Assembly (NCBI GenBank): GCA_016281255.1
Contig: JAEEIG010000037.1
Span: 453-64,452 of the forward strand
DNA length: 64,000 bases
Source: Bacteroidales bacterium
Lineage (GTDB): Bacteria > Bacteroidota > Bacteroidia > Bacteroidales > WCHB1-69
Direction: 5' to 3'
Shown here: piece after piece, positions 36,844 through 64,000 of the stretch
Layout: the number at the start of each line of letters is the position of its first letter
How positions within the stretch are numbered: position 1 is the first letter of the stretch
Notes under the pieces: generated by a model
The model's input: the letters and a program-made list of their open reading frames with translations, nothing else
What the model was told of the DNA's origin: nothing
Database searches by the model: none
Made by a program: the position numbers and the translations under genes

Positions 36844-36960
36844 CGATAATTTAATCAAAATTTATGTAGTGTTTTGAAATATTTATCAAGTGTTAATTGT
36901 TGATAAGTTTATATTTTGTTTGTTGTTAATTAGTTGGGTAGATAAAAGGATCGTTTTTTT

Positions 36961-37036
36961 GAGACTTGAGACTTGAGACTTAAGACTTGAGACTTAAGAC
37001 TTGAGACTTAAGACTTTGAACCTGAAACCTGAAACT
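36961..37036 (+). repeat. heptanucleotide tandem array (RAGACTT)8 + (TGAAACY)3
   Basis: Read directly: GAGACTT x3, then AAGACTT/GAGACTT alternating x5, then TGAACC, TGAAACC, TGAAACT. It lies between the gldB 3' end and the ssb promoter. Confidence 0.95.
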
Positions 37037-41781: not shown

Positions 41782-41789
41782 TTTTTTAA

Positions 41790-41830
41790 GGTTTACAGGT
41801 TTATGGGTTTACAGGTTTGACAGGTTTATC
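41790..41830. repeat. 8-bp period array (GGTTTACA GGTTTATG GGTTTACA GGTTTGACA GGTTTATC)
   Basis: It fills the gap between the lipoprotein gene stop (41826-41828) and the barrel gene start (41781). Confidence 0.85.
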
Positions 41831-45073: not shown

Positions 45074-45874
45074 ATGCAACAAACTGATAAATATGCAGAG
45101 GCTCTGTCGGCGTTCCGGCATCTGCTGGAAATCATGGACGAGTTGCGTGAGAATTGCCCGTGGGATCGAGAACAGACTTTCGACACATTGCGCAACCTCA
45201 CTGTAGAAGAGACTTTCGAGCTGGCGGATGCCATCATGGAGAAGGACTATCCCGACATGTGCAAGGAGCTCGGGGATCTGATGCTCCACATTGTCTTCTA
45301 CTCGAAAATTGCTTCCGAACAGCATCTTTTCGAGGTGAAAGATGTAATTAACCAGCTGTGTGACAAATTAATACGCCGTCACCCGCATATCTACGGCGAG
45401 GTCAAGGCCGACTCGGCCAACCAAGTGCACGAGAACTGGGAGAAGATCAAGCTGCAAACCGAAGGGAACCGCTCCGTGCTGGGCGGCATCCCTTCCGGAA
45501 TGCCGGCGATCACCAAAGCTTACCGCATCCAAGACAAGGTCAGCGGGGTCGGTTTCGACTGGGACAACCGCGACCAAGTGTGGGACAAGGTGCAGGAGGA
45601 GCTCGGAGAACTTCAATCCGAGGTCAACAGTCCCGCCCCCGACCAAGCCCACATTGAAGAGGAGCTCGGCGATGTGCTTTTTGCCATCGTCAACTACTCC
45701 CGCTTTATCAACGTGCACCCGGAAGACGCCTTGGAAAAAACCAACCGCAAATTCCTTCGCCGTTTTCAACTTCTCGAACAATATGTGAAGGCCGACGGAC
45801 GTTCTCTTACCGATATGTCGTTGGCTGAGATGGATGTGTATTGGGAAAAGGCGAAGAGAGAGTTGAGACGTTAG
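45074..45874 (+). CDS. mazG: nucleoside triphosphate pyrophosphohydrolase MazG
   Basis: About 266 aa from MQQTDKYAEAL. Two MazG EExxE/D motifs are present (EETFELADAI, EELGDVLF). The TAG stop lies inside a heptamer array. Confidence 0.9.
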   Translation: MQQTDKYAEALSAFRHLLEIMDELRENCPWDREQTFDTLRNLTVEETFELADAIMEKDYPDMCKELGDLMLHIVFYSKIASEQHLFEVKDVINQLCDKLIRRHPHIYGEVKADSANQVHENWEKIKLQTEGNRSVLGGIPSGMPAITKAYRIQDKVSGVGFDWDNRDQVWDKVQEELGELQSEVNSPAPDQAHIEEELGDVLFAIVNYSRFINVHPEDALEKTNRKFLRRFQLLEQYVKADGRSLTDMSLAEMDVYWEKAKRELRR

Positions 45875-45915
45875 ACTTGGGACTTGGGACTTGGGACTTG
45901 GGACTTGAGATTATA
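45867..45915 (+). repeat. heptamer array GACGTTA (GACTTGG)4 GACTTGA GATTATA
   Basis: Read directly. It contains the mazG stop codon. Confidence 0.95.
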
Positions 45916-45982
45916 AAATAAAGACATTAATCAAAAACAATGGAAAATATGACAAATTATTATGACTTAACATATAACCCCA

Positions 45983-46031
45983 AAAGTCCTAAGTCTTACG
46001 TCTTAAGTCTTACGTCTCAAGTCTTACGTCT
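45983..46031 (-). repeat. heptamer array in inverse orientation (AAAGTCC TAAGTCT TACGTCT TAAGTCT TACGTCT CAAGTCT TACGTCT)
   Basis: Read directly. It is the inverted partner of 45867-45915, 67 bp away. Confidence 0.95.
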
Positions 46032-46047
46032 TATAAACCCCACTCGG

Positions 46048-47973
46048 ATGTACCACAAATTAAATATAGTATATATAATATTAATGTGTATCATCGCTCC
46101 GATGATTACCAGTGCGCAGAAGAGTTCCAAGGCGGCGCCGTTGTTTGAAAAGGCCAAGCAGTGTATGAAATCCAACGATTTCGACAAGGCGTTGACCTAT
46201 CTTTACCAAGCGCAAGCCAAAGATGCGAACTTTGCCGACCTCTATATCATGAAGGGCGACATTTTCAACTTCCGTTTGCAGTCCGACTCCGCCATGTGCA
46301 ACTACCAGCGTGCCATCGAGCTCATCGGCGATCCTGACCCGATGCTCTACTATATTGCCGGAAACGAGGGAGCGAAGTGCGGTGCCTACGAATATGCGCT
46401 CAATACCTTGCAACTTTTCCTGCAGAACGGTCTGCAGTATTCCGATGTGCACCCCGATGCGCAGAAAACCATTGCCAATTGTCGGTTTGCCATGGAGGAG
46501 ATGCGGCATCCCAAGCGTTTTGAGTTGGTTAACATGGGTGCCAACATCAATTCCGAGTGGGACGAAATGCTTGCCGCCATCACTGCGGACGACGAACAAC
46601 TCATTTTCACCGTTAAGCGCCCCCGCGACAAGGGCACCGTCTGCGCCTTCTGTCTCAATGAAGAGGATCTCTATAGCAGTCGTTTCGTCAATGGCGACTG
46701 GCTGCCGCGCGAACCGCTCGGCCCTCCGGTGCGTACCGGCTATAACGAGGGAGCGCAATGTCTCTCCCCCGACGGCAAGTATCTGCTTTACACCATGTGC
46801 GATGCCGACTTCGGGATGGGAAGCTGCGATATCTATTGGGCCAAGCTCATGGGTGACAAGTGGTCACGGCCCCGCAATTTCGGTGCGCCGGTGAACACTT
46901 CCGCCTGGGAGAGCCAGCCGACCATGTCTTCCGACGGCATGACCGTCTATTTTGCCTCTTCCCGTCCGGGCGGGTACGGCGGTATGGACATCTGGAAGAC
47001 CACCATGACCGCAGAAGGGGAGTTCACGGTTCCCGAGAATCTCGGTCCGTCGATCAACACCCCCGGCGACGATGCCGCCCCCTTCATCCACAGTGACGGC
47101 CGCACACTCTACTTCGCCTCTAACGGTCGCGTAGGCATGGGAGGCTATGATCTCTACTACACTACCCTCCAGCCGGATGGTACGTGGAGCGACCCCAAGA
47201 ATATGGGTTACCCTATCAACTCCCCTGCTGATGAGATCAATATCTTCATTAACGCCTCTGGTACAATGGCTTACATGGCTTCCGACAAAGACGGGGGCTA
47301 CGGCGGTCTCGACCTTTACCGTTTCGAGCTCGACGATGAGTTGCGTCCCAACCCTGTCACCTACATCAAGGGTCGTGTGCGCGACGCCTTCACCGGCGAT
47401 CCGTTGTCGGCCCGCATCGAGATGATCGACCTCTCCACACGTCAGCTTCTCACCTCCACCACTTCGGATCCGCTGACCGGCAGTTATCTTGCCTGTATTC
47501 ACACCGGGGGCAACGTGCTGCTCAACGTTTCGCATCCCGACTATCCGTTCTATTCCGAGAACTTCCAGCTGGAGCGCACCTACACGGAACTTTCCCCGTA
47601 TCTGAAAGACATTGCCTTGCAGCCCACGGATGTGGGAACGGTGGTGACATTGAAGAACGTCTTCTTCGACTTCGACAAGACCGAGCTACGGCCCGAGTCG
47701 TACGTGGAGCTTGACAAGTTGGTTGAGTATCTCCGAAAGCACAACATCCGGATCGAGATCGGAGGGCACACCGACGACCAGGGTTCCGACGAGTACAACG
47801 ACCGTTTGTCGGAGAGTCGTGCCAAGTCGGTGTATGACTACTTGGTGAGCAAAGGCATCTCCGCCGACCGGTTGCAGTACAAGGGTTATGGCAAGCGGAT
47901 GCCGGTTGCCGACAACGCCACCGAGGAGGGGCGTGCGGCGAACCGGCGGACCGAGTTCAAGATCATACGGTGA
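46048..47973 (+). CDS. OmpA-family outer-membrane protein (TPR + TolB-like beta-propeller repeats + OmpA C-terminal domain)
   Basis: The start at 46048 (MYHKLNIVYIILMCIIAPMITSAQ) lies downstream of the repeat array. PD40-like repeats are present (YFASSRPGGYGGMDIW, YFASNGRVGMGGYDLY, YMASDKDGGYGGLDLY). OmpA motif GHTDDQGSDEYNDRLSESRA...NRRTEFKI. Confidence 0.8.
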   Translation: MYHKLNIVYIILMCIIAPMITSAQKSSKAAPLFEKAKQCMKSNDFDKALTYLYQAQAKDANFADLYIMKGDIFNFRLQSDSAMCNYQRAIELIGDPDPMLYYIAGNEGAKCGAYEYALNTLQLFLQNGLQYSDVHPDAQKTIANCRFAMEEMRHPKRFELVNMGANINSEWDEMLAAITADDEQLIFTVKRPRDKGTVCAFCLNEEDLYSSRFVNGDWLPREPLGPPVRTGYNEGAQCLSPDGKYLLYTMCDADFGMGSCDIYWAKLMGDKWSRPRNFGAPVNTSAWESQPTMSSDGMTVYFASSRPGGYGGMDIWKTTMTAEGEFTVPENLGPSINTPGDDAAPFIHSDGRTLYFASNGRVGMGGYDLYYTTLQPDGTWSDPKNMGYPINSPADEINIFINASGTMAYMASDKDGGYGGLDLYRFELDDELRPNPVTYIKGRVRDAFTGDPLSARIEMIDLSTRQLLTSTTSDPLTGSYLACIHTGGNVLLNVSHPDYPFYSENFQLERTYTELSPYLKDIALQPTDVGTVVTLKNVFFDFDKTELRPESYVELDKLVEYLRKHNIRIEIGGHTDDQGSDEYNDRLSESRAKSVYDYLVSKGISADRLQYKGYGKRMPVADNATEEGRAANRRTEFKIIR

Positions 47974-48004
47974 TTAGTGATTTGTGAGTTGTGAGTTGTG
48001 ATTT
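47970..48004 (+). repeat. heptamer array GTGATTA GTGATTT GTGAGTT GTGAGTT GTGATTT
   Basis: Read directly. It contains the TGA stop of the OmpA-family gene. Confidence 0.9.
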
Positions 48005-54500: not shown

Positions 54501-57500
54501 GTATTTGCTATCGATACCATTACCGGTTGTACGTTCACTGAGAACATTTATGTCGAGAAGGAACTCTACACCATCACTATCGCTGCTGACGCTACTCCCA
54601 GCACCTATTGCAGCCAAACCTCTGGCGACGGTACGATCACTGTGAATGCTACCAGCACCAATCCTGACGCTGTTTTCAACTACAGCCTTGACAATCAGAA
54701 CTGGCAGGTGAGCAATCTGTTCAGCAATTTGGCTAACAAGACTTATACCGTCTATGTCAAGGATGTCACCACTCGTTGTGTGGACAGCATTTATGTCGGT
54801 ATCAGCTACAGCGATTGCAGACCTGAAATCTCCATCGTTGACCAAAACGGCGACACTGCTCCGTTCGAATATTGTATCAACGACGAGAACGTCAAACTTT
54901 GCGCTAACGCTTTCTATCCTCTTGGCAGCGAATGCGAAGGTACGTTCACCTATCATTGGGATGCTCCTTGTTCAGATCCTCAGTATTCTGACGACAAGTG
55001 TATCGACGTCTTCATTGACCACGTGATGCCGAACGGTTGTAACTACATCCTTACGGTCACCAATCAACTGACGGGTTGTTCTTATGACACGATGGTTTAT
55101 GTCTATGTCAATCCTAAACCTGTCATCGGTTTCGATGTGAATGGTACAACCTATTATAACGCCGAGCAATCTATTCCTTTCTGCGAGCAAGAGAATCTCC
55201 ATATTACTGTTGTCTCTAAGAATGGTCAAACTCTGGTTCCTGAACTTACTTACTGGACTCTCGGTCACATTGGTACTGGTTTGAGCTTCGATACCACTGG
55301 CGCTGGCTACACGCAAGATTACATTACCATCTGCGCTTACTCTACCAGCGACAAGGGTTGTGTTTCCAACATTGCTTCTCTGCCGTTGAACTTCAACCGC
55401 GTGGAAAGAATCACTGTTGACACCACCGTTTGTGGAAGTTTCCAAGTTCCGGACGATATCAGAACTATTACCAGCAATACCTATCCTTACTATGATACTG
55501 TTTCTCATACGTATCCTGGTACACATCCTTACTGCGACCGCATTGTGACTTACAATGTCAAGCTCATCTCTGCTCCTGAGGTTACTCCTTTGAACGAGTA
55601 TGTGGCTGCTTTCTGTGAGGATATGAACTATACGTTGGCTAACTTCGTTGATTCATTCGCCGTTGACACCAATGGTGCTACTACAACTACGAAGTGGCAA
55701 GCTGCTTTGCGTCCTTCCTATAATTACGTTGATGTTGAAGCTACTACTGTTGTTGACTATGCATTTGCTACCACTCACAGAGTTAGATATGTTGCCACCA
55801 ACTGCTGCGGTACTGACTACTCTGATATCTATTTCAATGTTTCCAAGGCTCCTCGTATCGACAGCTTCCAATTGCAATCTAAGTATTGTAGAGCTCAACA
55901 GGCTACCTTAACATTTGATTTCACTGTTTATAATCCTGCTATCGCTGTTTTGACACTTGGTGCTGATACTGTTAGAAGTTATTACATGTATTCTAATGGT
56001 TCTACCAGTCGTACATTCACGTTTACTCCTAACCATGCTAATTATGATGGTAAGACACTCACTTTGAGCATTAGAAATCTAAACAACCTCTGTGATGTTG
56101 TTACTGCAAGCCAAGTGTTCCACGTTGATACTACTTTCATTAATAACTTCACTATTGATACGATTTATTGTGCTGGTAATACTCTCCATCACAGTGATCT
56201 CATCGATGGTACTGGTTATACTAATGTTCGTTTGTGGCATCAAATCGCTGGTCAAACTGATCAAAGAATTTATAATAATTCTACGGTTACTTATGCCATG
56301 AATGGTTATCTCGTATACTTCACCATGAATGATGGTTGTGGTAACCAGATTACGACCAACATTGATACTATCTTTGTGAAACCTCAACCGAGCGTTACTC
56401 TCAATGGTGATGATTATTACAATGTTTGTGAGGATGAATTTGAATTGCCGACTGTTAACATTCCTTCAAATGTTCAATCTCTCGTCTTATCACAAGGTTG
56501 GCAAATGTACAATGGTACTACTCAATCATTTGAAGATACCACTGCTGCCGATATTATAGCTCTTGCTGCTGATAGCATTGTAAGAATTCGTTACTTTGTT
56601 GAGACTGACTGTAATGTCGCTTATACTCAAGCAATCGAGGCTTACTATAAGTTCGCTCCTGAGATTGCCCAACTTCCTACTCTCACTATTTGCCCGGACA
56701 ACACTATTGCTGACGTTCTTCCTACTTCATTGGGTATTACTTGGCATAACATTCTTCTTCCCAACACTAATAACTTCCGTACTACTCGTTATTATTTAGT
56801 GAAGGGAACGAATACTGTTGAGGTTTATCCTACTTCTGTCTTTAGCAACTATTATTCATACAATGATGGTAAATTACGCATTGTAGTTACCAACGAGTGT
56901 GGTTCTGCTTCAACCGAAGCTACTATCCACATCCCGGTTTACAGCCACAACGAAATCGTTGCTGTTGACACATGTAAAGGTCTCACCATTGCAGCCTTCG
57001 CAGCTACTCCTCAATGGACCGGTGATCAAGGTGTTGTCACCTCTGAGACTTGGGTGCGTCTTGTCAATAATGAATATGTTGCTACCACCGATGAGTATGT
57101 CGTGAACACCAATACCACTATTTCTTATCGTTGGATTACTGTTTGCGAAGACACTCTCTACGCTGCTCCTGTCACGATTCATCCTCTGCTGACTCCCGAA
57201 GTTACTATCTTGGCTGACAACCTTGTCAACGATACTATCGCCATCTGTGAGGGTAACACGATCAATCCTACTGCTTTTGTCAGCTATCCTATCTATTCTT
57301 CCACCGTTACTGACACTACTTGGTTCTTCAACGGTAATGCTTACGATCCTTCTTATCAGTTCACCGCAGCTGACAATGACAAGGAACTTGTTGTCAAGCT
57401 TTCTACCACTTGCGATGATTCCTACGATACTGTCATTGTGAGAGTTTATCCTACTCCGGATCCTACCATCGACGGTCCTCTGACTGCTTGTAGTGGAGAA

Positions 57501-58709
57501 GAAATTACCATTACTGCACAGGCTGGCTTCAGCAGCTATGTCTTCACCGTAAATGGTCAAGCTTCTCAACCTCAATCCAGCAATGTCTTCGAGACCACTG
57601 TCTTCGACAACAATCCTGATGGTGTTGATATCACTACTGTTACTGTCACTGTCACCGACAATCATTCTTGTACCGGTACTTCTTCTGACAAGGTTGAAGT
57701 CTCTGTCACCGACCAAGCTGCATTTGTCTTCTTCAATGAAAACGGTACCGAGAACGAAACCCACAATTACACCGTCAACGATGGTGGTGGTTTGAACTAC
57801 GGTTGGATGATCAGCACGGAGTGCGCTGATTATGACACGTTGGTCTATGTTGAGTATGACATTTACTATGAAGGTCAGCTCATCTCCAACGATGCTATCG
57901 GTGAATACTTCCACACTGGCAACTACACTGACCAATGGGGTCATCAAACGCCTTTCATCAGCAGCAATACATTCAGCTGGCTGAGCGGTAATGGTACTCC
58001 TTTGACCAATACTACTTACTACAACTTCGCTGTTGCTAATCCTAATGTCGCCACCAATGGCAACCACTTCCCGAACACCAACCTTGGTCTCGGCAACACT
58101 AACGTTTACGATGACCTCTGGTTGCGCTTCATCGGTGACCGTGGTGTGAATGCCACTTTGGTTCCGTTCAGATTGGATGGTGAATACAAGATTGTTTACA
58201 GACTCTACTCCACCTCTCATGCTGATGACTTCGAGCATTACTACACCGAAGATAATCCTGCTCACGATAATTTCGGTACGCAGTCTCACCTCGGTGGTCA
58301 GAACGCTCTCGTCAATGTTGCTATTCGCAAGCTCTTAGCTATCGACTCTATCACCATCAACGTCGAGAACGCTGTTGCTGGTCCTTCTGAGACCACTGCT
58401 CCTGTCCTTGCTCCTGCTATCAGCTCTGAGGAGAATGTGATTGTTCCTGAAATGGAAGTTTGGCCGAACCCGGCTCCTTCTATCGTCACCACCTTCAAGG
58501 CTCGCGTTTACAACATGAGCGGTGAGGCTACTGTGACCATCACGAACTTCACTGGTAAACAAGTCTATAGTGGCAATATCAATATTGATAGCGATAACTT
58601 CTACTTCGAGGCCGACGTTAACAGCCTTGCCGTGGGTGCTTACATCATGACTGTTCGCACCGATGACGCTGTTGTCACCAAGAAACTGGTTGTGACCGTT
58701 AGACAATAA
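48501..58709 (+). CDS. giant (3402 aa) Cys-rich cell-surface repeat protein, SprB/HYR-like modules, T9SS C-terminal sorting domain
   Basis: Uninterrupted 10,209-nt ORF with signal peptide MKKLLSICFLSILLGLLSFSTQAQ. Repeated C...(N/D)G(T/S/V/K)I modules: CTDNNGVISVV, CDNPNGTIHFTV, GDGTIVVLSP, GDGTITVNATS. HYR-like D.V.P...C...CGN modules. CTD: VWPNPAPSIVTTF...GAYIMTVRTDDAVVTKKLVV. Confidence 0.85.
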   Translation: MKKLLSICFLSILLGLLSFSTQAQSNCYGFWMENLQPDVLDHVANPGNETGTYALNHTLGHAVLRGQSNRYVGNVDSSAIGQPELYELHFCDNASGKKLSFDWQLERRNPATGNWQIVNDNLSAYADFGIYTLYPQLNQAGQCQSIKWLGGIVPNGIGYCDNSQVYSLLDTILGIPPCTTPTNYPGAVQTQAGTLPGSVLNTLGQAIPSIGMTPIYTEGFDYFYADFLASTRTIVVINWKQVGDYRLVMRVRERVGGTDWTNATWNKYGEGNVMNETAYIGGHMSCCGPVLLVDTLHYPVLDTLNMEVCQGTTTEMGSPYTYTFGVDQRCILDTTVLVGEIVNADCPSESPCQYIDIDTLRNVNYLVRMAPVAQVEKHTDTLCKCDAFTTDMVRAMVEFDSTEIATFVTGDETVEYKLQWLHVFQEGEHLPAGDGALCPNCDWYESIYPRSITVNPATNDTTYMYIVRQVNTYNNYGEEVVCAGPADTIYITFREIVKPVVPADTAFCLETIEAGSTLTINATHDPVCANSTRWYTSRKYNYWTYKYDYSGYLGDVDALVINLNDYTPSVNKDTTVRFYAFSIDTTNGCMSSQVSVYTIVFHQTPVLDTVTAPNLYNCPGVDVPMEVIVDNNPLNTPSPYTFVWTGVTGVDLLNPAPAPASIATVSTISTQANSSYELPLSNNFNYTYSQQIFTKDEVASGVISTISFNYSSANQMTAKDDVKIYLGTTDKESFTGYGNWDLTSELTLVYSGNLNCKQGWNDFTLTTPFDYDGQKNLLVVISDESGVYDGTSYKFYTTPAGAYRTLVVMQDGSVATPTSYNGARKNVRSDIKFTVVPAGAYTTSDEFQQAYYHISDTDTCHTAYTSSVYVIDANNCKSTPIVFNYFLNDTVAPVITPATVSYGINACEITSQNVPAYDNLAELVNAFNLDIYDSCGAEFVVLVGHNDVMTIDSCQQTLVRTYTFADHCGNPATFTQTVVSRDSVAPYYTFDRPIRLDPIPAGDCKFNAPSRQVMIDAIAPYVADNCTDSAFLMDSITFVWENTDKDPASDTNIFRLKNHLTITATITDKCDNSFSEVVFFLDRPDDLEIVGHPVSHTGDLCEQQTATLFFDMNSIVDDQEVGPFPPYTLTWYEVNGKDVTFSDIHNDTTVVTFNEGAGDYTFAMRVVNGNDCEAVSAPATINVRELPSLSIIPIVQQPGVVEPYCPTYGNLTIEAVVANAETSGATGYTYTWSGESVNIYSTTETTWITIIPEWCDTTYTATVVVSDERGCTAETSRTFEAAAHDMIFNGIIPDSTVVINQGCELHVPNYMDQIAAENITDDCYTFSQITQKAGWYKQTPAAGTVFSTDSVEVTITITNPCGQTVSTTTYARKPANYPSVKIVPDTIAVCYNEFFEGVTYNTVSENLDDNTTWRWTIGNGIVGTQDFVTLPNDAFNAPVNQDTTYVVNVQAVNSLGCPATATANLVIYYQGDSVQLRVWNNNLCGEDYYNGVIAVDFVPTNYVVTLSQGNVDLEVKISDNNQHEPTLWNTVIFDSLAPGYYTVTVENLHGCTMSADTVVRTDDVIISEPTVTVTDVTVCTDNNGVISVVRENNYGFTLFNSDYSVEYTGIVAGANINFSGLSAAEYKLVKTHIPTGCEFAWTYNVLDASEPETQFDINYTNNTRCDNPNGTIHFTVTGSDPLTLHVWNANYDYTTGAITTDTTITGLGSTQGYIFYLCEVQNTVTQCKSVVSRVLIENKAVLPSFTATPTNNTICPNNTAYNNNVENLVNGKITIAPANAYTYTVMDAITLDTVKTSLDSLAEGSYVVIAVNEQNGCAAMKVANIGNTYYQPVVETISQTPNSVCDTTYAHQYDGSLTIKVKSSTNTIADFNNYIRPYMIVLDNDTVIAQSNIQQNTITHLADGVHNYYILTDNKCYVTGSYEVKKYVIDTMRLATTPDHFCAPTFEKPGDGTIVVLSPRNSAAHGYKYKFYDADSTDMTVPYEMPMTYTKYWLADGLYTVFAIDTITGCTFTENIYVEKELYTITIAADATPSTYCSQTSGDGTITVNATSTNPDAVFNYSLDNQNWQVSNLFSNLANKTYTVYVKDVTTRCVDSIYVGISYSDCRPEISIVDQNGDTAPFEYCINDENVKLCANAFYPLGSECEGTFTYHWDAPCSDPQYSDDKCIDVFIDHVMPNGCNYILTVTNQLTGCSYDTMVYVYVNPKPVIGFDVNGTTYYNAEQSIPFCEQENLHITVVSKNGQTLVPELTYWTLGHIGTGLSFDTTGAGYTQDYITICAYSTSDKGCVSNIASLPLNFNRVERITVDTTVCGSFQVPDDIRTITSNTYPYYDTVSHTYPGTHPYCDRIVTYNVKLISAPEVTPLNEYVAAFCEDMNYTLANFVDSFAVDTNGATTTTKWQAALRPSYNYVDVEATTVVDYAFATTHRVRYVATNCCGTDYSDIYFNVSKAPRIDSFQLQSKYCRAQQATLTFDFTVYNPAIAVLTLGADTVRSYYMYSNGSTSRTFTFTPNHANYDGKTLTLSIRNLNNLCDVVTASQVFHVDTTFINNFTIDTIYCAGNTLHHSDLIDGTGYTNVRLWHQIAGQTDQRIYNNSTVTYAMNGYLVYFTMNDGCGNQITTNIDTIFVKPQPSVTLNGDDYYNVCEDEFELPTVNIPSNVQSLVLSQGWQMYNGTTQSFEDTTAADIIALAADSIVRIRYFVETDCNVAYTQAIEAYYKFAPEIAQLPTLTICPDNTIADVLPTSLGITWHNILLPNTNNFRTTRYYLVKGTNTVEVYPTSVFSNYYSYNDGKLRIVVTNECGSASTEATIHIPVYSHNEIVAVDTCKGLTIAAFAATPQWTGDQGVVTSETWVRLVNNEYVATTDEYVVNTNTTISYRWITVCEDTLYAAPVTIHPLLTPEVTILADNLVNDTIAICEGNTINPTAFVSYPIYSSTVTDTTWFFNGNAYDPSYQFTAADNDKELVVKLSTTCDDSYDTVIVRVYPTPDPTIDGPLTACSGEEITITAQAGFSSYVFTVNGQASQPQSSNVFETTVFDNNPDGVDITTVTVTVTDNHSCTGTSSDKVEVSVTDQAAFVFFNENGTENETHNYTVNDGGGLNYGWMISTECADYDTLVYVEYDIYYEGQLISNDAIGEYFHTGNYTDQWGHQTPFISSNTFSWLSGNGTPLTNTTYYNFAVANPNVATNGNHFPNTNLGLGNTNVYDDLWLRFIGDRGVNATLVPFRLDGEYKIVYRLYSTSHADDFEHYYTEDNPAHDNFGTQSHLGGQNALVNVAIRKLLAIDSITINVENAVAGPSETTAPVLAPAISSEENVIVPEMEVWPNPAPSIVTTFKARVYNMSGEATVTITNFTGKQVYSGNINIDSDNFYFEADVNSLAVGAYIMTVRTDDAVVTKKLVVTVRQ

Positions 58710-58732
58710 TCAATAGTTATTCATACATGGAA

Positions 58733-58767
58733 GGAGTTGTGCGCACTGGCGTGCAACTCCTTTTTTT
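58733..58767 (+). terminator. rho-independent terminator of the giant gene
   Basis: GGAGTTGTGCGC-actg-GCGTGCAACTCC (two G-U pairs) followed by T7. Confidence 0.85.
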
Positions 58768-58953
58768 GATTTGAGATTTGAGATTTGAGATTTAAGACTT
58801 AAGACTTAAGACTTATGACTTATGACTTAAGATTTAAGACTAAAATCTAAAATCTAAAATCTAAAGTCTAAGGTCTAAAGTCCCAAGTCTAAAGTCTAAA
58901 GTCTAAAATCTAAAGTCCCAATTCTAAAGTCTCTAAAGTCTAAAGTCCCAAGT
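58768..58953. repeat. 186-bp head-to-head inverted heptamer array (10 forward GAYTTRA units, then 16 reverse CTAAAGT-type units)
   Basis: Read directly: (GATTTGA)3 GATTTAA (GACTTAA)2 (GACTTAT)2 GACTTAA GATTTAA, then (CTAAAAT)3 CTAAAGT CTAAGGT CTAAAGT CCCAAGT (CTAAAGT)2 CTAAAAT CTAAAGT CCCAATT CTAAAGT ct (CTAAAGT)2 CCCAAGT. Confidence 0.95.
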
Positions 58954-58971
58954 CCATAAACAAAAATTCTA

Positions 58972-60741
58972 ATGACCAACTACAAACGATATATCCCTTG
59001 GTTGTTCGCGGTGTTCTTGTTGAATGCGGTGTATGTTGTATTGACGATATTCGCGTTTTTGATGATCGAGCCGTTCGCGAAGTTGCTGTTTCGCGGCCAT
59101 TTGGAGGGATTGAGTCCATTGTCATCCTATTTTGTGTCGATTCTTGGCGGATACCTTCCGATGGACAGTCAGGGTGTTTCGTTTGTGACTTTGGTTTCCG
59201 CGGCCGTTTTTCTCTTCCTGTTGCGCAATCTTTCGGCGTATGCTTCTCAGTGGTTGATGGCCCATGTGCGTAGTGATTTTCTCTTTACGCTCCGCAATCG
59301 TCTCTACGACAAGATGATTTCATTGCCGTTGGGTTATTTCAACAAAGAGAGTCGCGGCGATGCGGTCACCCGTGCGGTGAACGACACCCAGGAGGTGGAA
59401 TACACGGTTCTCAACTCCATCTATCAGTTCCTTACCGACCCTCTCACCTTGTTTTGCTATCTCGGTTTCCTTTTTTACATCGACTACCAGCTTTCCTTGT
59501 GGGCGGTTTTGTTAATGCCGTTGTCCTTCCTGATCATCGGTTTCTTGGCGCACCGGCTCAAGCGTTCTTCGAAAACCTACCGTCAGCGACTTGGTGTCCT
59601 GTTGTCGCATGTGGAAGAGACTATTTCGGGGTTGCGGGTGATTTACGGTTTTAACGCCCAGGAGCGTGCCTATCGGCGTTTCAACGAGCGGAATCTGCAG
59701 TTCACGCAGAACCAGAAGCGGGTCTATCGACAGAGCTATTTGGCCAACCCGCTGAGTGAGTTCCTCGGGGTAAGTGCTGTTATGGTGGTGTTGGTGATCG
59801 GGGGCTCGTTGGTGCTTTCGGAGCGTTCTTCCTTGTCGGCGGAGCTTTTCATCACCTACATTGCCCTTTTCTCGCAGGTCATCACGCCCATTTCGCGCAT
59901 TTCCTCGGCCTTTTCGGACTACAAGCGCGGGGAGGCGGCGCTGGACCGTATCCGCGATTTTTTGGCGATTCCCGACAATGTGGAGGATAGCGGCGCGGTG
60001 TTGACTCTTCCCGGTTTTCACGAGGCTTTGACGTTCCGGGATGTCTCTTTCGCCTACACGGATGCCGAGGTGTTGAGCCATATCGATCTGACCATTCCGA
60101 AGGGGAAGACGGTGGCGTTTGTGGGGCAGTCGGGTGCTGGAAAATCCACCCTTGCCGATTTGCTGATGCGGTTCTATGACCCTACCGGCGGCGAGATATT
60201 GTTGGACGGGGTGCCCATCCGGCATTACGGGGTGGGGGATTACCGTTCTTTGTTCGCTTTGGTGTCGCAGGATGTGATGCTTTTTCACGACACTATCTAC
60301 CACAATATCACGATGGGGATGGAGGCCACGCCGGAGCAGGTCGCTGAAGCGGCGAAAACGGCCAATATTTACGACTTTGTGATGTCGCTGCCTGACGGGT
60401 TCGGCCATGTCGTCGGCGACCGCGGAACGACGCTTTCCGGCGGCCAGCGGCAACGGGTGAGCATTGCGAGGGCGGTGTTGCGGAAGGCGCCTGTGCTGGT
60501 GCTGGACGAAGCCACCTCGGCGATGGACACGGAGAGCGAGCGGCTGGTGCAGCAGTCGATAGAAGCGTTGTCGAAGCAGTGCACGGTGGTGATGATCGCC
60601 CACAGGCTCTCCACGGTGCAGCGTGCCGACCTGATCTGTGTGCTGGATGCCGGCCGGCTGGTGGAATCCGGCACGCACGAAGAGCTGATGGCGGCGAAAG
60701 GGACTTATTACAAGTTAGTAGTTAGTAGTTGTGATTTGTGA
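58972..60741 (+). CDS. ABC transporter permease/ATP-binding protein (MsbA-like exporter)
   Basis: 589 aa. A six-TM N-terminal half, Walker A GQSGAGKST, signature LSGGQRQR and Walker B LVLDEATSAMD. The last 9 codons (KLVVSSCDL) and the stop are encoded by the repeat array. Confidence 0.9.
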   Translation: MTNYKRYIPWLFAVFLLNAVYVVLTIFAFLMIEPFAKLLFRGHLEGLSPLSSYFVSILGGYLPMDSQGVSFVTLVSAAVFLFLLRNLSAYASQWLMAHVRSDFLFTLRNRLYDKMISLPLGYFNKESRGDAVTRAVNDTQEVEYTVLNSIYQFLTDPLTLFCYLGFLFYIDYQLSLWAVLLMPLSFLIIGFLAHRLKRSSKTYRQRLGVLLSHVEETISGLRVIYGFNAQERAYRRFNERNLQFTQNQKRVYRQSYLANPLSEFLGVSAVMVVLVIGGSLVLSERSSLSAELFITYIALFSQVITPISRISSAFSDYKRGEAALDRIRDFLAIPDNVEDSGAVLTLPGFHEALTFRDVSFAYTDAEVLSHIDLTIPKGKTVAFVGQSGAGKSTLADLLMRFYDPTGGEILLDGVPIRHYGVGDYRSLFALVSQDVMLFHDTIYHNITMGMEATPEQVAEAAKTANIYDFVMSLPDGFGHVVGDRGTTLSGGQRQRVSIARAVLRKAPVLVLDEATSAMDTESERLVQQSIEALSKQCTVVMIAHRLSTVQRADLICVLDAGRLVESGTHEELMAAKGTYYKLVVSSCDL

Positions 60742-60830
60742 TTTGTGATTTGTGATTTGTGATTTGTGATTTGTGATTTGTGATTTGAGATTTGAGATTT
60801 GAGATTTGAGATTTGTGATTTGTGACTTGT
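60714..60830 (+). repeat. heptamer array: degenerate GTTAGTA units, then (GATTTGT)7 (GATTTGA)4 (GATTTGT)2 GACTTGT
   Basis: Read directly; 14 clean units from 60733 to 60830. It spans the ABC gene stop and lies upstream of four-helix cassette 1. Confidence 0.95.
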
Positions 60831-60871
60831 GTTTTTTTAAGTGATGTTTGTTTTTGTATTATAATATTTTT

Positions 60872-60879
60872 TATTTTTG
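60872..60879 (+). promoter_or_regulatory. putative -7 box for four-helix-bundle gene 1
   Basis: TATTTTTG lies 33 nt upstream of the ATG at 60913. The 21-nt leader AAATTATTGTTTAACAAAATA (60883-60903) is identical in cassette 2. Confidence 0.5.
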
Positions 60880-60912
60880 CGGAAATTATTGTTTAACAAA
60901 ATAAATATCCTT

Positions 60913-61341
60913 ATGAAAACTTATTCTTTTGAAAATCTTGATGTTTGGAAATATTCCAGACAATTAGTCAAACAAGTTTACAACATTCAATCTGCATTTC
61001 CATCTTTTGAAAGGTATGGCTTGGGAGACCAAATAAGACGTGCCGTTGTTTCTCTTTCGTCGAATATTGCAGAAGGAAATGCAAGAAGTTCAATCAAGGA
61101 CCAGGTTCATTTCTTAGAAATATCTAAAGGGTCTCTAATGGAAGTCTATTGTCAAATGTTATTAGCCTATGATTTGAATTATATTAATGCAAATCAGCTG
61201 TCAAAGTGCAAAGAGAACATTGATGTCATTTTTAAACTGCTCAATGGCCTCATTTATCAAAAAATCAATCTTATATCTAACAATGCTGTCCAAACCCCAT
61301 ATCGAAACAAATACTGTCAGCCCCATAATCATAAATCATAA
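60913..61341 (+). CDS. four-helix-bundle protein (23S rRNA intervening-sequence protein / Avd-like family)
   Basis: The start at 60913 gives MKTYSFENLDVWKYSRQLV...FGLGDQIRRAVVSLSSNIAEGNAR...GSLMEV, the family pattern. The C-terminal HNHKS and the stop lie inside the downstream array. Confidence 0.85.
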   Translation: MKTYSFENLDVWKYSRQLVKQVYNIQSAFPSFERYGLGDQIRRAVVSLSSNIAEGNARSSIKDQVHFLEISKGSLMEVYCQMLLAYDLNYINANQLSKCKENIDVIFKLLNGLIYQKINLISNNAVQTPYRNKYCQPHNHKS

Positions 61342-61379
61342 GTCATAAATCATAAGTCATAAATCCTAAGTCTAAAATC
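61324..61379 (-). repeat. heptamer array, inverse orientation (CATAATC ATAAATC ATAAGTC ATAAATC ATAAGTC ATAAATC CTAAGTC TAAAATC)
   Basis: Read directly; 8 units between four-helix gene 1 and trmB. Confidence 0.95.
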
Positions 61380-61387
61380 AAACATCA

Positions 61388-62053
61388 ATGTCAAAACATA
61401 AATTAGCGAGATTCGCGGAGAACGCGACGTTTGAGAATTTGTTCCAGCATACGGAATACGACAGGGCGGGAAAGGAGTTCCCGTTGCGGGGCCGTTGGAA
61501 GGAGGATTATTTCCACAACGACCGTCCCATTGTGCTGGAGTTGGGCTGCGGCAAAGGGGAGTACACCATTGCGATGGCGAAGCGGTTCCCCGGGCGCAAC
61601 TACATCGGCATCGACCGGAAGGGGGCGCGGTTGTGGCGCGGCTGCAAGGACGCCATCGAGCAGGAGCTGGCGAATGTGGCGTTCCTGCGCATCACCATCG
61701 ACCACATAGAGCACTATTTCGCCCCCGGCGAGGTGGACGAGATTTGGGTGACCTTCCCGGACCCGCAGATCAAGAAGGAGCGCAAGCGCTTGGTGGGCCC
61801 GCATTTCGTGAACGACTACTATCGCCGGATTTGGCCCGCAAACGGCGGTATTTTGCATTTGAAGTCCGATAGCGACTTCTTGTACGATTATCTCCTCGAA
61901 ACGGCGAAAGAACAGCGCTGGGAGCTTCTGCAGGACATTCCCGACGTGTATGCCGGAGACGTTGATCCGTTGCTCACGGAGGTGCAGACGTTTTACGAGA
62001 AGATGTGGTTGGCGGAGGGGAAGACGATACACTATGTGAGACTTAAGACTTAA
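61388..62053 (+). CDS. trmB: tRNA (guanine46-N7)-methyltransferase
   Basis: 221 aa with SAM motif LELGCGKGEYT and FPDPQIKK. The last codons (VRLKT) and the stop are encoded by the repeat array. Confidence 0.9.
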   Translation: MSKHKLARFAENATFENLFQHTEYDRAGKEFPLRGRWKEDYFHNDRPIVLELGCGKGEYTIAMAKRFPGRNYIGIDRKGARLWRGCKDAIEQELANVAFLRITIDHIEHYFAPGEVDEIWVTFPDPQIKKERKRLVGPHFVNDYYRRIWPANGGILHLKSDSDFLYDYLLETAKEQRWELLQDIPDVYAGDVDPLLTEVQTFYEKMWLAEGKTIHYVRLKT

Positions 62054-62088
62054 GACTTGAGACTTGAGACTTGAAACTTAAGACTGTA
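62040..62088 (+). repeat. heptamer array (GACTTAA)2 (GACTTGA)3 AACTTAA GACTGTA
   Basis: Read directly. It contains the stop codons of both convergent genes: trmB (62051-62053) and four-helix gene 2 (62078-62080). Confidence 0.95.
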
Positions 62089-62458
62089 TGGTGGAAAGTT
62101 GTTTGGACTTTTGGTATCGCATCCCTTTTAGCAACTTATGTACTTCTTCTATTTTCTCTTTGCAAAGTTTTAGTTGCTTTTCGGTAATGTAGTTTAAATC
62201 ATAAGCTAATGTCAACTGGCAATAGACTTCCATCAACGATCCAAGGGCAATCTCAATGAAATGAATTTGTTCTTTTATGGAATACCGGGCGTTCCCTTCA
62301 ACAAAATTTGACGACACGGAAACAACAGCTCTCCTCAACTGATCTCCCAAACCATATTTTTCAAATGAAGGAAATGTGGATTGGATACGGTAAACAAGCA
62401 AAACAAGTTCTCTGGATTTTTTCCAAACTTCAAGATTTTCAAACGAATAAGTGTTCAT
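62078..62458 (-). CDS. four-helix-bundle protein (23S rRNA IVS protein / Avd-like family), paralog 2
   Basis: The ATG at 62458 gives MNTYSFENLEVWKKSRELV...YGLGDQLRRAVVSVSSNFVEGNAR. By hand alignment, 83 of the first 117 residues are identical to paralog 1. Confidence 0.85.
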   Translation of the reverse strand: MNTYSFENLEVWKKSRELVLLVYRIQSTFPSFEKYGLGDQLRRAVVSVSSNFVEGNARYSIKEQIHFIEIALGSLMEVYCQLTLAYDLNYITEKQLKLCKEKIEEVHKLLKGMRYQKSKQLSTIQS

Positions 62459-62491
62459 ACTATAAAATATTTTGTTAAACAATAATTTTTG

Positions 62492-62499
62492 CAAATATA
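62492..62499 (-). promoter_or_regulatory. putative -7 box for four-helix-bundle gene 2
   Basis: TATATTTG on the minus strand, 33 nt upstream of the ATG at 62458, the same spacing as cassette 1. The conserved leader is at 62468-62488. Confidence 0.5.
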
Positions 62500-62534
62500 A
62501 TCTTTTTATAATATAAAAAGGGCTTTCTTCAAAA

Positions 62535-62580
62535 AAAGTCTTAAGTCTCAAGTCTTAAGTCTAAAAATAATCTCAAGTCT
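62535..62580 (-). repeat. heptamer array, inverse orientation (AAAGTCT TAAGTCT CAAGTCT TAAGTCT ... CAAGTCT)
   Basis: Read directly. It lies upstream of four-helix cassette 2 and reads AGACTTR on the cassette strand. Confidence 0.9.
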
Positions 62581-62592
62581 CAATTATTTTTG

Positions 62593-62600
62593 TACTTTTG
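62593..62600 (+). promoter_or_regulatory. putative -7 box for gcvT
   Basis: TACTTTTG lies 38 nt upstream of the ATG at 62639. Confidence 0.5.
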
Positions 62601-62638
62601 CGCTCTCAAAAAGTTATTACAATTAAATCCAAAACAAT

Positions 62639-63733
62639 ATGAAAGAAACCGTTTACAGAGCGAAACATGAGGCCTTAGGCGCCAAAATGGAAGAGTTTGC
62701 CGGCTTTTACATGCCGATTCAGTACGACAGCATCACCAACGAGCACCTGCAGGTGCGTAACAAAGTGGGCGTGTTCGACGTGTCCCACATGGGTGAGTTC
62801 ACCGTGAAGGGTCCGAAGGCGTTGGCATTGCTGCAACACATCACCACCAACGATGTGGCTGCCTTGTTCCCGGGCAAAGTGCAATACAGCTGCTTCCCGA
62901 ACGGCAAGGGCGGTATCGTCGATGACCTTTTGGTTTACAATCTCCATGACGAGGATTACCTGCTGGTGGTGAACGCCGCCAACATCGACAAAGACTGGGC
63001 ATGGGTGGTGGAGCAGAACAAGGCTTTCGGTGCCGAGATCGAGAACATCTCCGACAGCATCTCCCAATTGGCAGTGCAGGGTCCTTTGGCACTCAAGGCT
63101 ATGCAGAAACTGACCAGCGCGAACGTGGTGGACATGGAGTACTACACCAACCAGATCATCACTTTCGCCGGCATCGACAATATCCTCTTCTCCACGACCG
63201 GTTACACTGGCAGCGGCGGATGTGAGATTTATTTCCCGAATGAGGTGGCCATGAAGATTTGGGATGCCGTGTTCGAGGCTGGTGCTGAGTTCGACATCAA
63301 ACCCATCGGTTTGGGTGCTCGCGACACCTTGCGTTTGGAGATGGGCTTCTGCCTGTATGGTCACGAGATTGACGACACGATCTCTCCGATCGAGGCCGGT
63401 TTGGGCTGGATCACGAAGTTCGTGGACGGCAAGGATTTCATCGACCGCAAGTACATGGAAGACCTGAAAGCCAACGGCGTGACCCGCAGAATCGCCGGTT
63501 TCGAGCTGATTGACCGCGGAATTCCGAGAAACGGCTACGAAGTGTGCGATGCCGAGGGTAACGTCATCGGCGAAGTGCGTTCCGGCACATTCGGTCCGTC
63601 CGTGAACAAGGGCATCGGCACGGCGCTGATCAAGAAAGAGTTCGCGAAATCCGGTACGGAAATTTTCATCAAAGTGCGTAACCGCCTGCTGAAGGCCGTT
63701 ACGGTGAAGATGCCGTTCTACAAACCCGAATAA
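62639..63733 (+). CDS. gcvT: glycine cleavage system aminomethyltransferase T
   Basis: 364 aa with [12 protein letters not shown] and [13 protein letters not shown]. Confidence 0.95.
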
Positions 63734-63764
63734 TTCAATGGCGTATGCTGTTGTTTGATAATAA

Positions 63765-63797
63765 ACGTCCGGGTTTTTCGCCTGGACGTTTTTTTTG
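63765..63797 (+). terminator. rho-independent terminator after gcvT
   Basis: ACGTCCGGG-tttttcg-CCTGGACGT followed by a T8 run. Confidence 0.8.
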
Positions 63798-63799
63798 GG

Positions 63800-63839
63800 C
63801 TTAGAGGCTTAGAGGTTTAGAGGTTAATAAGTTTAGAGG
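63800..63839. repeat. 8-bp period array (CTTAGAGG x2, TTTAGAGG, TTAATAAG, TTTAGAGG)
   Basis: Read directly, immediately after the gcvT terminator. Confidence 0.85.
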
Positions 63840-63864
63840 GGTAAATGGGTAAACGAAAAAAATG

Positions 63865-63872
63865 TAATTTTG
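63865..63872 (+). promoter_or_regulatory. putative -7 box for the last gene
   Basis: TAATTTTG lies 44 nt upstream of the ATG at 63917. Confidence 0.45.
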
Positions 63873-63890
63873 CAGCATCGTTCTGAAAGC

Positions 63891-63911
63891 TTAAGTCATC
63901 AGTCAAAAGTC
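63891..63911 (-). repeat. short heptamer array in a 5' leader (TTAAGTC ATCAGTC AAAAGTC)
   Basis: Three 7-bp units with the conserved AGTC core, between the -7 box and the ATG at 63917. Confidence 0.6.
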
Positions 63912-63916
63912 AAAAT

Positions 63917-64000
63917 ATGGAAAACCGAAAATTCATCATCACCATCAACCGCGAAGCAGGGACAGGTGGTCGCGAAATTGCCCAGAAAGTGAGCGAAATG
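63917..64000 (+). CDS. cytidylate kinase-like family protein (5' fragment, runs off the window)
   Basis: Own translation MENRKFIITINREAGTGGREIAQKVSEM. This N-terminal pattern (ITI.RE.G.GG..IA) is typical of the Bacteroidales cytidylate-kinase-like family. Only 28 codons are visible. Confidence 0.5.
   Translation, partial: MENRKFIITINREAGTGGREIAQKVSEM

Follow-up and report, generated by a model that had tools for sequence, protein, structure and literature searches.

Intervening sequences (IVSs) in the 23S ribosomal RNA (rRNA) genes of Coxiella burnetii, Leptospira and Brucella, lodged in helix 9, 25 or 45, are sporadically distributed elements of about 430-700 nucleotides (nt) with a GC content below that of the host, in which inverted repeats form a stem enclosing an open reading frame (ORF) for S23p, a protein of family PF05635. 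In Coxiella three to four GACAGAT repeats stand before the S23p ORF, their number being strain-dependent, and the first repeat of the 28-bp terminal stem is where RNase III cuts (PMC4990558). Heptamers are not treated as a defining feature in the papers on rRNA IVSs that we consulted. The family itself is large (31,764 clusters at 50% identity) and has had crystal structures since 2006; we know of no function for it. In this study we analyse a stretch of 64,000 nt from a Bacteroidales genome (assembly GCA_016281255.1, contig JAEEIG010000037.1, positions 453 to 64,452; hereafter the window, whose own numbering is used throughout), in which two PF05635 genes, each bracketed by inverted arrays of tandem heptamers, lie on either side of trmB. 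We find that these two cassettes are best classed as IVS-type elements outside rRNA and that the family as a whole is associated with inverted heptamer arrays across phyla, an association that may explain the unexplained 7-base repeats of bacterial genomes.

Such heptamer repeats, among them the short tandemly repeated repetitive (STRR) sequences, GGGAATC and TAACTGA, were reported as over-represented between 1990 and 2007 and have been without explanation since. Rehm et al. found GGGAATC at about 186 sites per Xanthomonas genome, recorded convergent inverted pairs at 70 of these, and offered neither an explanation nor a protein partner (PMC4692102). From TAACTGA repeats beside start codons MacGregor inferred an unknown post-transcriptional regulator, and the authors of the TAACTGA work suggested horizontal spread "but no mechanism is evident" (PMC4679880). 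STRR, TAACTGA (Beggiatoaceae, Cyanobacteria, Bacteroidetes) and the four- and five-heptamer elements of Geobacter resemble the arrays described here in being intergenic tandem heptamers of 2-6 units, sometimes dozens, that lie by start or stop codons and are patchily spread (PMC4679880, PMC2700814, PMC4692102). We found no link to a protein family in the literature on these repeats, and the publications on XCC0516, the Xanthomonas member of PF05635, and on GGGAATC do not connect protein and repeat. The phase-variation heptamers of Haemophilus are a separate matter, and not every heptamer repeat need belong here.

We consider it probable that the two cassettes (Table 1) are independent copies of an IVS-type selfish cassette, placed between protein-coding genes instead of in rRNA. 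The unit consists of a 5' heptamer array, a short leader, a four-helix-bundle gene and an inverted heptamer array; the leader carries its own -7 promoter in this Bacteroidales lineage and amounts to only about 18 nt in most other genomes. With rRNA IVSs the cassettes have in common the PF05635 protein, the size, the inverted repeats able to form a stem around the ORF, the tandem heptamers at the 5' border, the sporadic distribution and the low GC content, which is about 28-33% in the cassettes against 55-63% in the flanking genes and 57% in the host. They differ in that both copies sit in spacers between protein-coding neighbours (ABC transporter/trmB and trmB/gcvT), that each has its own Bacteroidetes promoter, that the arms are long, pure heptamer arrays of up to 15 units, and that the same heptamers also occur gene-less across the region. 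Cleavage of the stem by RNase III is experimental for rRNA IVSs (PMC4990558) and is suggested for the trmB cassettes by analogy. A search with Rfam across 58600-64000 found no rRNA match, and the composition of trmB is host-like.

The two genes and their leaders together make up a 392-nt inverted repeat that is 70% complementary. A preliminary description, drawn from the letters of the window, had given positions for the -7 boxes, leaders and coding sequences, all of which we verified in the sequence, together with the 33 nt from -7 box to ATG in both cassettes; its hand count of 83 shared residues among the first 117 agrees with tblastn (70.9%, 83/117). The boxes conform to TAnnTTTG, the -7 consensus of Bacteroidetes. 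To judge from the codon-position mismatches between the paralogues (26/15/64), the cassette proteins are under purifying selection. The leader, which appears as the translated start MFNKI in the gene calls of two relatives (P0009 and P0027), could serve the cassette as an operator or for translational control.

Assignment of the proteins to the family is secure in both sequence and fold. They match PF05635 with 121.7 and 125.6 bits (cut-off 33.8; E 2e-35 and 1e-36) over profile positions 1-106 of 106, and TIGR02436 with 110.7 and 112.8 bits for proteins 1 and 2 (cut-off 24). Ten residues around the family motif GxxRxxxSxxxNxxE (Lin 2006; Zhang 2013, PMC3936711), namely Leu37, Gln40, Arg42, Arg43, Ala44, Ser47, Ser50, Asn51, Glu54 and Gly55, do not change across 21 aligned relatives, while Gly38 and Asp39 vary in a few of them. 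The AlphaFold (AF2) monomer model is a four-helix bundle (predicted local distance difference test score 87.7); the reading frames had been said to enter the arrays at their C-termini, and the tails are indeed encoded inside them, residues 128-141 of protein 1 being disordered in the model. By Foldseek the best structural match is XCC0516 (2gsc; template-modelling (TM) score 0.97, target-normalised; root-mean-square deviation 0.7 Å), with about 40% sequence identity, followed by BT_0352 (2rld, TM 0.89) and then by Avd (4dwl and 8ub7, TM about 0.8-0.87). The entries 2gsc and 2rld both hold five chains. Like Avd, whose family forms a homopentameric barrel that works with nucleic acid, the cassette proteins are four-helix bundles and basic (isoelectric point about 9). 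Unlike Avd, they score below the Avd cut-offs (PF22296, 23.9 and 32.3 bits against 40; NF033474, 28.9 and 37.4 bits against 80; a weak match to phrog_3206), and no reverse transcriptase, template or variable repeats lie nearby, the only long repeats being the cassettes and arrays themselves. To our knowledge Avd loci do not carry heptamer arrays. Neither Pfam and NCBIfam nor PADLOC gave any other match for the cassette proteins, and profile searches revealed no HUH, other nuclease or recombinase motif in them.

The association of this family with heptamer arrays reaches far beyond the window. We scanned one genome per species (GTDB) with the family profile, which yielded 80 loci among the matches listed, across Bacteroidota, Verrucomicrobiota, Clostridia, Alpha-, Beta- and Gammaproteobacteria, Desulfobacterota, Acidobacteriota, Planctomycetota, Omnitrophota, Patescibacteria and others. 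An array of period 7 lay at most 200 nt from the gene in 47 of 83 cases, and period-7 arrays covered 9.3% of the 200 nt beside PF05635 genes against 0.6% of the far flanks. Because that comparison sets mostly intergenic against mostly coding DNA, we prefer a period-specific control in the same gene-adjacent windows, where periods 5, 6 and 9 gave a coverage of 0.4-0.6% and period 8 one of 3.5%; the connection between gene and array that had been noticed in the window is thus real and general. Arrays stood on both sides in 24 of the 80 loci of the first scan; for 22 of these, reverse-complementing the downstream unit gave agreement with the upstream one at 5 or more of 7 positions. The heptamer varies by genome (GGGAATG, GGTTTTC, CGTGAAT, GAGTGAG, AGTGGTC, CGTAGGG, GTTGTCA and more), and three of the four-helix genes (L037, L081, L083) are flanked by GAYAAC/TAACTGA-like units. 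Polarity is nearly constant: the G/T-rich, C-poor arm is the 5' one in 36 of 39 non-redundant gene-flanking pairs, and the consensus units contain 10% C. The arrays are short (median 4.2-4.4 units, interquartile range 3.5-5.0) and close to the gene, with a median of 18 nt from upstream array to start codon and 6 nt from stop codon to downstream array, the stop being overlapped in 13 of 40. The gene points the same way as the upstream ORF in 67 of 78 loci and as the downstream one in 58 of 65, and its AT content exceeds that of its flanks in 86 of 89. At distances of over 400 nt, arrays match the gene-adjacent heptamer at 6 or more of 7 positions in 33% of cases, compared with 4.8% across loci. 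What is unexpected here is this general, polarity-fixed association of the PF05635 family with inverted heptamer arrays, of which we found no report in open-access papers and bioRxiv.

Independent cases bear the same pattern. In Xanthomonas (L170-L177, about 2924-3373) the orthologue of XCC0516 interrupts the accB-accC operon, with (GGGAATC)n upstream and (CCCATTC/CCGATTC)n downstream, and the spacers around it, 76 and 42 nt long, consist mostly of GGGAATC-type heptamers. As in the window, G-rich heptamers stand 5' and their complement 3', and the heptamer is dispersed, genome-wide in Xanthomonas and region-wide here; unlike the cassettes, the XCC0516 gene lies inside the accBC operon, where a promoter of its own would not fit, and is a fixed feature across species. 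GGGAATC repeats are also G-rich enough for G-quadruplexes, whereas the GAYTTRN units of the window cannot form them, and we rejected the G-quadruplex function proposed for Xanthomonas as a general one. One of these loci (L170, 4858-5327) also has, downstream of accC, a 97-nt unit repeated 4.9 times at 90% identity, which is absent from another (L176). Within a plasmid collection the family occurs almost only in Nostoc, Calothrix, Anabaena and relatives, the organisms that furnished the first description of STRR heptamers. The Calothrix plasmid copy is flanked by GGGTGTA and its complement; that of Anabaena sp. 90 lies co-oriented between cas6 and cas4, with GGTGACA and its complement, and that of Picosynechococcus lies co-oriented between cas10/cmr2 and cmr3, with GGAGATA-type units. 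The gene on plasmid gamma of Nostoc PCC 7120 (L178), situated between two insertion sequence transposase genes, is an exception, having C/T-rich heptamer-like arrays in the same orientation on both sides (2370-2960) and no inverted pair. The reported association of the family with CRISPR (PMC3936711, PMC10910872) calls for caution, as it may only mirror insertion into tolerant operons and no Cas function.

Comparison of the same locus in relatives indicates that the cassettes come and go. Three metagenomic contigs (L001-L003) have the identical arrangement at more than 99% identity, and almost all of their differences from the window fall in the arrays (60727-60831, 61324-61388, 62037-62085), as gains or losses of one heptamer and swaps of GATTTGA for GATTTGT/GACTTGT or the reverse; the arrays behave as hypervariable variable-number tandem repeats. 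Several contigs end within arrays, which probably break assemblies. We then compared 80 trmB loci from metagenomes. Of the roughly 20 relatives whose TrmB is 85-95% identical, most lack a four-helix gene on both sides of trmB. Two (L093, L094) have cassette 2 only, with GACTTAA arrays, the protein of L093 being 84% identical to protein 2; one (L104) has a divergent four-helix gene between CGTTGAC arrays; and one (L087) has a gene-less pair of cassette-1 heptamers plus a promoter-like box. We considered the last as an internal-deletion derivative of cassette 1 and rejected this, BLAST supporting only the arrays and the last 44 nt. Empty trmB sites retain array pairs of other heptamers, namely AGTTAGY, GAATTAA/GAATGAA with TTCATTC, and GGTTTAG with GTAAACC. 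The array-only trmB flanks that the preliminary description had said to look for therefore exist, and its view of the cassette as a discrete unit is borne out by the presence/absence polymorphism (neither gene, cassette 2 only, gene-less pair). Arrays occur in nearly every intergenic region of close relatives and are few in lineages with TrmB identity of 72% or less. In the spacer between the ABC transporter and trmB of five relatives (L084, L088, L096, L101, L164) the loop between heptamer arrays holds a short repeated element with a consensus of about TTCCTTGAGCAGCCCCGGTAGGGGCAAGAGCTCGGTAG, which looks like a separate hairpin element resembling miniature inverted-repeat transposable elements.

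Related genes are also found at other sites. Another relative (L164-L167) retains the order ABC-trmB-gcvT-cmk-dcd with empty trmB flanks; its spacer between dcd and a methylase gene holds a homologue with 70% identity to protein 1, bracketed by GACGTTA/GACGTAA arrays and the complementary units. In L168 and L169, again with empty trmB flanks, a homologue 75% identical to protein 1 adjoins cmk between GACGTGA/GACGTAT arrays. Related genes thus carry related heptamers (GAYKTRN) to non-orthologous sites, and the cassettes are independent units of gain or loss to which trmB is not cargo. The composite-transposon-like arrangement around trmB proposed earlier does not hold: it is ruled out because synteny (ABC-trmB-gcvT) is conserved with or without cassettes, the cassettes occur independently of each other, and related genes lie at other sites.

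How such a cassette might be tolerated is suggested by RNA folding, in which the arrays of both cassettes form a terminal stem around the ORF (z -5.1 for cassette 1, -4.1 for cassette 2). In a read-through transcript the two arms would pair into a stem of at least 22 bp enclosing the ORF, and RNase III is predicted, by analogy with rRNA IVSs, to cut it, which would free a hairpin-capped cassette mRNA and spare the host operon or rRNA. Insertion would therefore be harmless in rRNA, accBC or cas operons, and the IVS-like reading would in this way explain the presence of the family at all three. The fixed polarity may serve to keep the C-rich, G-poor RNA arm from being exposed before its partner arm has been made, since such RNA, if left unpaired, would load Rho. 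The arrays are probably the target of a pentameric, Avd-like protein: because the proteins are basic, belong to a family of pentameric toroids and are relatives of Avd, and because 4-5 heptamers correspond to about one per subunit, we suggest that the pentamer acts on the repeats, roughly one pentamer per 4-5 units (about 30-35 nt), and that it would control processing or translation, or promote spread. Gene-less pairs would then be remnants of cassettes whose loop was lost, or copies that are not autonomous. Two other purposes for the arrays were considered and rejected: three-frame stop codons, which GACTTAA and GATTTGT do provide and GGGAATC, GGTTTTC and AGATGCC do not, and telomere-like ends, which have the opposite polarity, the G-rich strand here being at the 5' end.

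Several observations weigh against an IVS-type selfish cassette of this kind. About 40% of the sampled family members have no array by the detector used. Identity between proteins and identity between their heptamers are uncorrelated (Spearman 0.04, Mantel p 0.16), which argues against a conserved sequence-specific recognition code; we do not claim one, and covariation of protein and heptamer gives a signal only above about 55-70% protein identity. The arms of cassette 1 form a far more stable duplex as sense than as antisense RNA in a test that exploits G-U wobble (-63 vs -27.6 kcal/mol), yet among 39 loci stability favoured the sense duplex 18 times and the antisense duplex 21 times (Wilcoxon p 0.69). 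We therefore rejected general selection on the arms as sense RNA, and there is no pointer to RNA rather than DNA as the form in which the arms function. Since the promoter lies downstream of the 5' arm, the cassette's own transcript lacks that arm here, and since the same site in relatives has other heptamers and no gene, arrays evidently persist and turn over without a gene in cis. Profile searches found no catalytic domain in the cassette proteins, and S23p in Coxiella was reported as probably untranslated (PMC4990558). Alignment of filled and empty trmB sites revealed no target-site duplication, array turnover blurring the exact boundaries. Mobility is deduced from presence and absence alone, a pattern that could partly be due to differential loss.

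An alternative is a domesticated post-transcriptional host regulator, in principle of the TRAP or CsrA type, with the tandem heptamers of mRNA leaders and 3' ends as its binding sites, the dispersed arrays being its regulon, its own arrays a means of autoregulation, and gene gain and loss ordinary turnover of accessory genes. Arrays of 4-5 units at a median of 18 nt before the start codon speak for it, as does the gene-less array of the window that ends 17 nt before the ABC-transporter ATG; MacGregor's regulator of TAACTGA repeats (PMC4679880), the basic character of the proteins (isoelectric point about 9), the strong purifying selection that they seem to be under and the RNA-protein complex in which the structural relative Avd has been seen (8ub7 and related) all point the same way. 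We nevertheless regard a host regulator as unlikely, given that the gene has a higher AT content than its flanks in 86 of 89 loci, is sporadic among near-identical lineages and has inserted in rRNA genes, cas operons and accBC, that arrays persist in relatives with no gene nearby, and that simple binding sites would have no need of inverted arms that pair.

RAYT genes, which encode the transposases associated with repetitive extragenic palindromic (REP) sequences, are flanked by inverted REPs, of which there are many gene-less copies. The cassettes resemble this system and its REP doublets (REPINs) in having a single gene between inverted cognate short repeats, many gene-less pairs at gene ends, and repeats specific to the genome; they differ in that RAYT is an HUH Y1 nuclease and the cassette protein has no recognisable catalytic motif, and in that REPs are single palindromes of about 20-40 nt and the cassette repeats are tandem 7-nt arrays. 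Spreading at the level of DNA could follow similar lines, the protein recognising hairpin or cruciform DNA of the inverted arrays and, with host enzymes, copying or moving both the arrays and itself, so that the 7-nt period would be its binding register or the product of slippage that it promotes. A gene between inverted cognate repeats with many gene-less intergenic copies (Xanthomonas: PMC4692102), array changes by whole units between strains more than 99% identical, and the lack of preference for either RNA strand are all compatible with this. Against it, the protein is a four-helix bundle of 110 residues with no HUH, other nuclease or recombinase motif, no target-site duplications were seen, and a change of heptamer at one site is equally explained by local concerted evolution; we think DNA-level spreading quite unlikely.

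That small paralogues merely happen to lie between heptamer arrays which are a general intergenic feature, such as slippage-prone simple sequence repeats or terminator-like hairpins, might be thought from the gene-less arrays at several sites of the window and in nearly every intergenic region of close relatives, and from the arrays that directly follow canonical terminators. Such a coincidence is very improbable and is effectively excluded, because the enrichment beside the gene is specific to period 7 and recurs across phyla when intergenic location is controlled for; moreover, the arms are reverse-complementary in 22 of 24 two-sided loci, the heptamer family follows related genes to non-orthologous sites, and Xanthomonas, cyanobacteria and Coxiella repeat the pattern. 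Finally, a composite transposon with trmB as cargo, or Avd genes left by a decayed diversity-generating retroelement, might be read into the inverted genes around trmB and the weak Avd matches (PF22296, 24-32 bits; phrog_3206), and has next to no probability, the synteny being the same with zero, one or two cassettes and no transposase being present at them, and the retroelement remnant being excluded because the Avd scores fall below the cut-offs of 40 and 80 bits and neither a reverse transcriptase nor a template/variable repeat pair occurs among the neighbouring ORFs.

Beyond the IVS-type classification of the two cassettes, we offer tentatively the possibility that a single, widespread protein-repeat system is made up of PF05635 pentamers and tandem heptamer arrays, in which the dispersed heptamer family of each genome (STRR, TAACTGA, GGGAATC, GAYTTRN) would be the cognate target or product of that genome's four-helix genes and the 7-nt period would be set by the binding register of the pentamer. 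If so, it would constitute a new class of selfish or regulatory protein-repeat partnership beside REP/RAYT, account for the long-noted excess of heptamers in bacteria and provide a function for a family of more than 30,000 clusters at 50% identity. Linking PF05635 with heptamers makes both puzzles testable at the bench, for which reagents exist in XCC0516 protein and GGGAATC oligonucleotides. Heptamer arrays are also to be flagged as probable hot spots for assembly breaks and as hot spots for strain-level variation in length.

Table 1. Cassettes and heptamer arrays of the window, with position, strand and remarks.
Feature	Position	Strand	Remarks
Cassette 1 -7 box, Bacteroidetes type, TATTTTTG	60872..60879	+	Fits TAnnTTTG consensus; 33 nt 5' of ATG
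Cassette 1 leader, 21 nt, AAATTATTGTTTAACAAAATA	60883..60903	+	Holds imperfect palindrome TTGTT-T-AACAA
Cassette 1 gene, four-helix-bundle protein, 142 residues, PF05635/TIGR02436	60913..61341	+	Last codons inside array
trmB (tRNA m7G46 methyltransferase)	61388..62053	+	Host gene between cassettes; stop codon in first units of next array
Cassette 2 gene, four-helix-bundle protein, 126 residues	62078..62458	-	PF05635/TIGR02436
Cassette 2 leader, 21 nt, AAATTATTGTTTAACAAAATA as reverse complement	62468..62488	-	Identical to cassette 1 leader
Cassette 2 -7 box, TATATTTG (reverse complement)	62492..62499	-	33 nt 5' of ATG
Resident (AGTTAGT)n array, 3' end of ABC-transporter gene	60708..60730	+	Encodes last residues; outside cassette 1
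Cassette 1 5' arm, about 15 units of GATTTGT/GATTTGA, G/T-rich strand	60727..60831	+	Tandem Repeats Finder, period-7 scan
Cassette 1 3' arm, ATAAATC/ATAAGTC on + (= GATTTAT/GACTTAT on -)	61324..61388	-	Runs up to trmB ATG; pairs with 5' arm in RNA fold
Cassette 2 3' arm (relative to the - strand gene), GACTTAA/GACTTGA on +	62037..62085	+	87-95% complementary to 62536-62565 (inverted repeats I2-I6)
Cassette 2 5' arm, GACTTAA/GACTTGA	62536..62580	-	Pairs with 62037-62085 in RNA fold; repeat scans detect 62536-62562
Gene-less pair, forward arm GATTTGA/GACTTAA abutting inverted arm (TAGACTT as reverse complement)	58763..58955	.	After intrinsic terminator; ends 17 nt before ABC-transporter ATG
Gene-less inverted pair, (GACTTGG)n 45871-45907, 73-nt AT-rich spacer, (AAGTCTT/ACGTCTT)n 45981-46033	45871..46033	.	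First unit overlaps stop codon of upstream gene
Solo array (GACTTGA/GACTTAA)n	36959..37016	+	Period-7 scan, GAYTTRN pattern
Solo array (GTGATTT/GTGAGTT)n	47970..48001	+	Overlaps stop codon of upstream gene

The arrays of the window were located with Tandem Repeats Finder and a period-7 scan of our own, and the pattern GAYTTRN repeated three times has 43 matches in the window against 0 in 100 shuffles. Both cassettes are bracketed by inverted (GAYTTRN)n, as the preliminary description had it, and the bracketing is not peculiar to genes, the same heptamers also standing gene-less at four places (36959-37016, 45871-46033, 47970-48001, 58763-58955). The forward array of cassette 1, which had been taken to begin at 60714, was confirmed at 60727-60831; the first units belong to the resident AGTTAGT array, which encodes the C-terminus of the ABC transporter and closes that gene also in relatives that have no cassette. 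Every pair in the window has the same polarity, with G-rich units first on the + strand and then on the - strand, and the pair around gene 2 keeps it despite the opposite direction of the gene.

With respect to their surroundings, arrays of the window begin at or over host stop codons (60741, 62053, 45874, 47973), and others directly follow canonical terminators at 58729-58764 and 63763-63791. At the first of these terminators heptamers start at 58763, after the T-run, and at the second 8-mers start at 63798; the same layout of terminator and then array is seen in a relative (L168). Arrays may seed or insert at the T-tracts of terminators. Arrays of period 8 occupy 63798-63839 and 41785-41828 (GGCTTAGA/GGTTTAGA and TTTACAGG), and this period shows a moderate enrichment beside the four-helix genes of other genomes as well (3.5% coverage). 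In Rfam the long hairpin at 58768-58939 gave only sub-threshold scores, to models of plant microRNA precursors. Tandem repeats of period 15 at 41831-41957 and 42203-42248 fall within a long - strand ORF (41826-43427) and presumably represent a repetitive protein segment. Immediately upstream of the gene-less pair before the ABC-transporter gene lies an ORF of 3,402 residues (48501-58709) with a signal-peptide-like N-terminus and many Cys-rich repeats.

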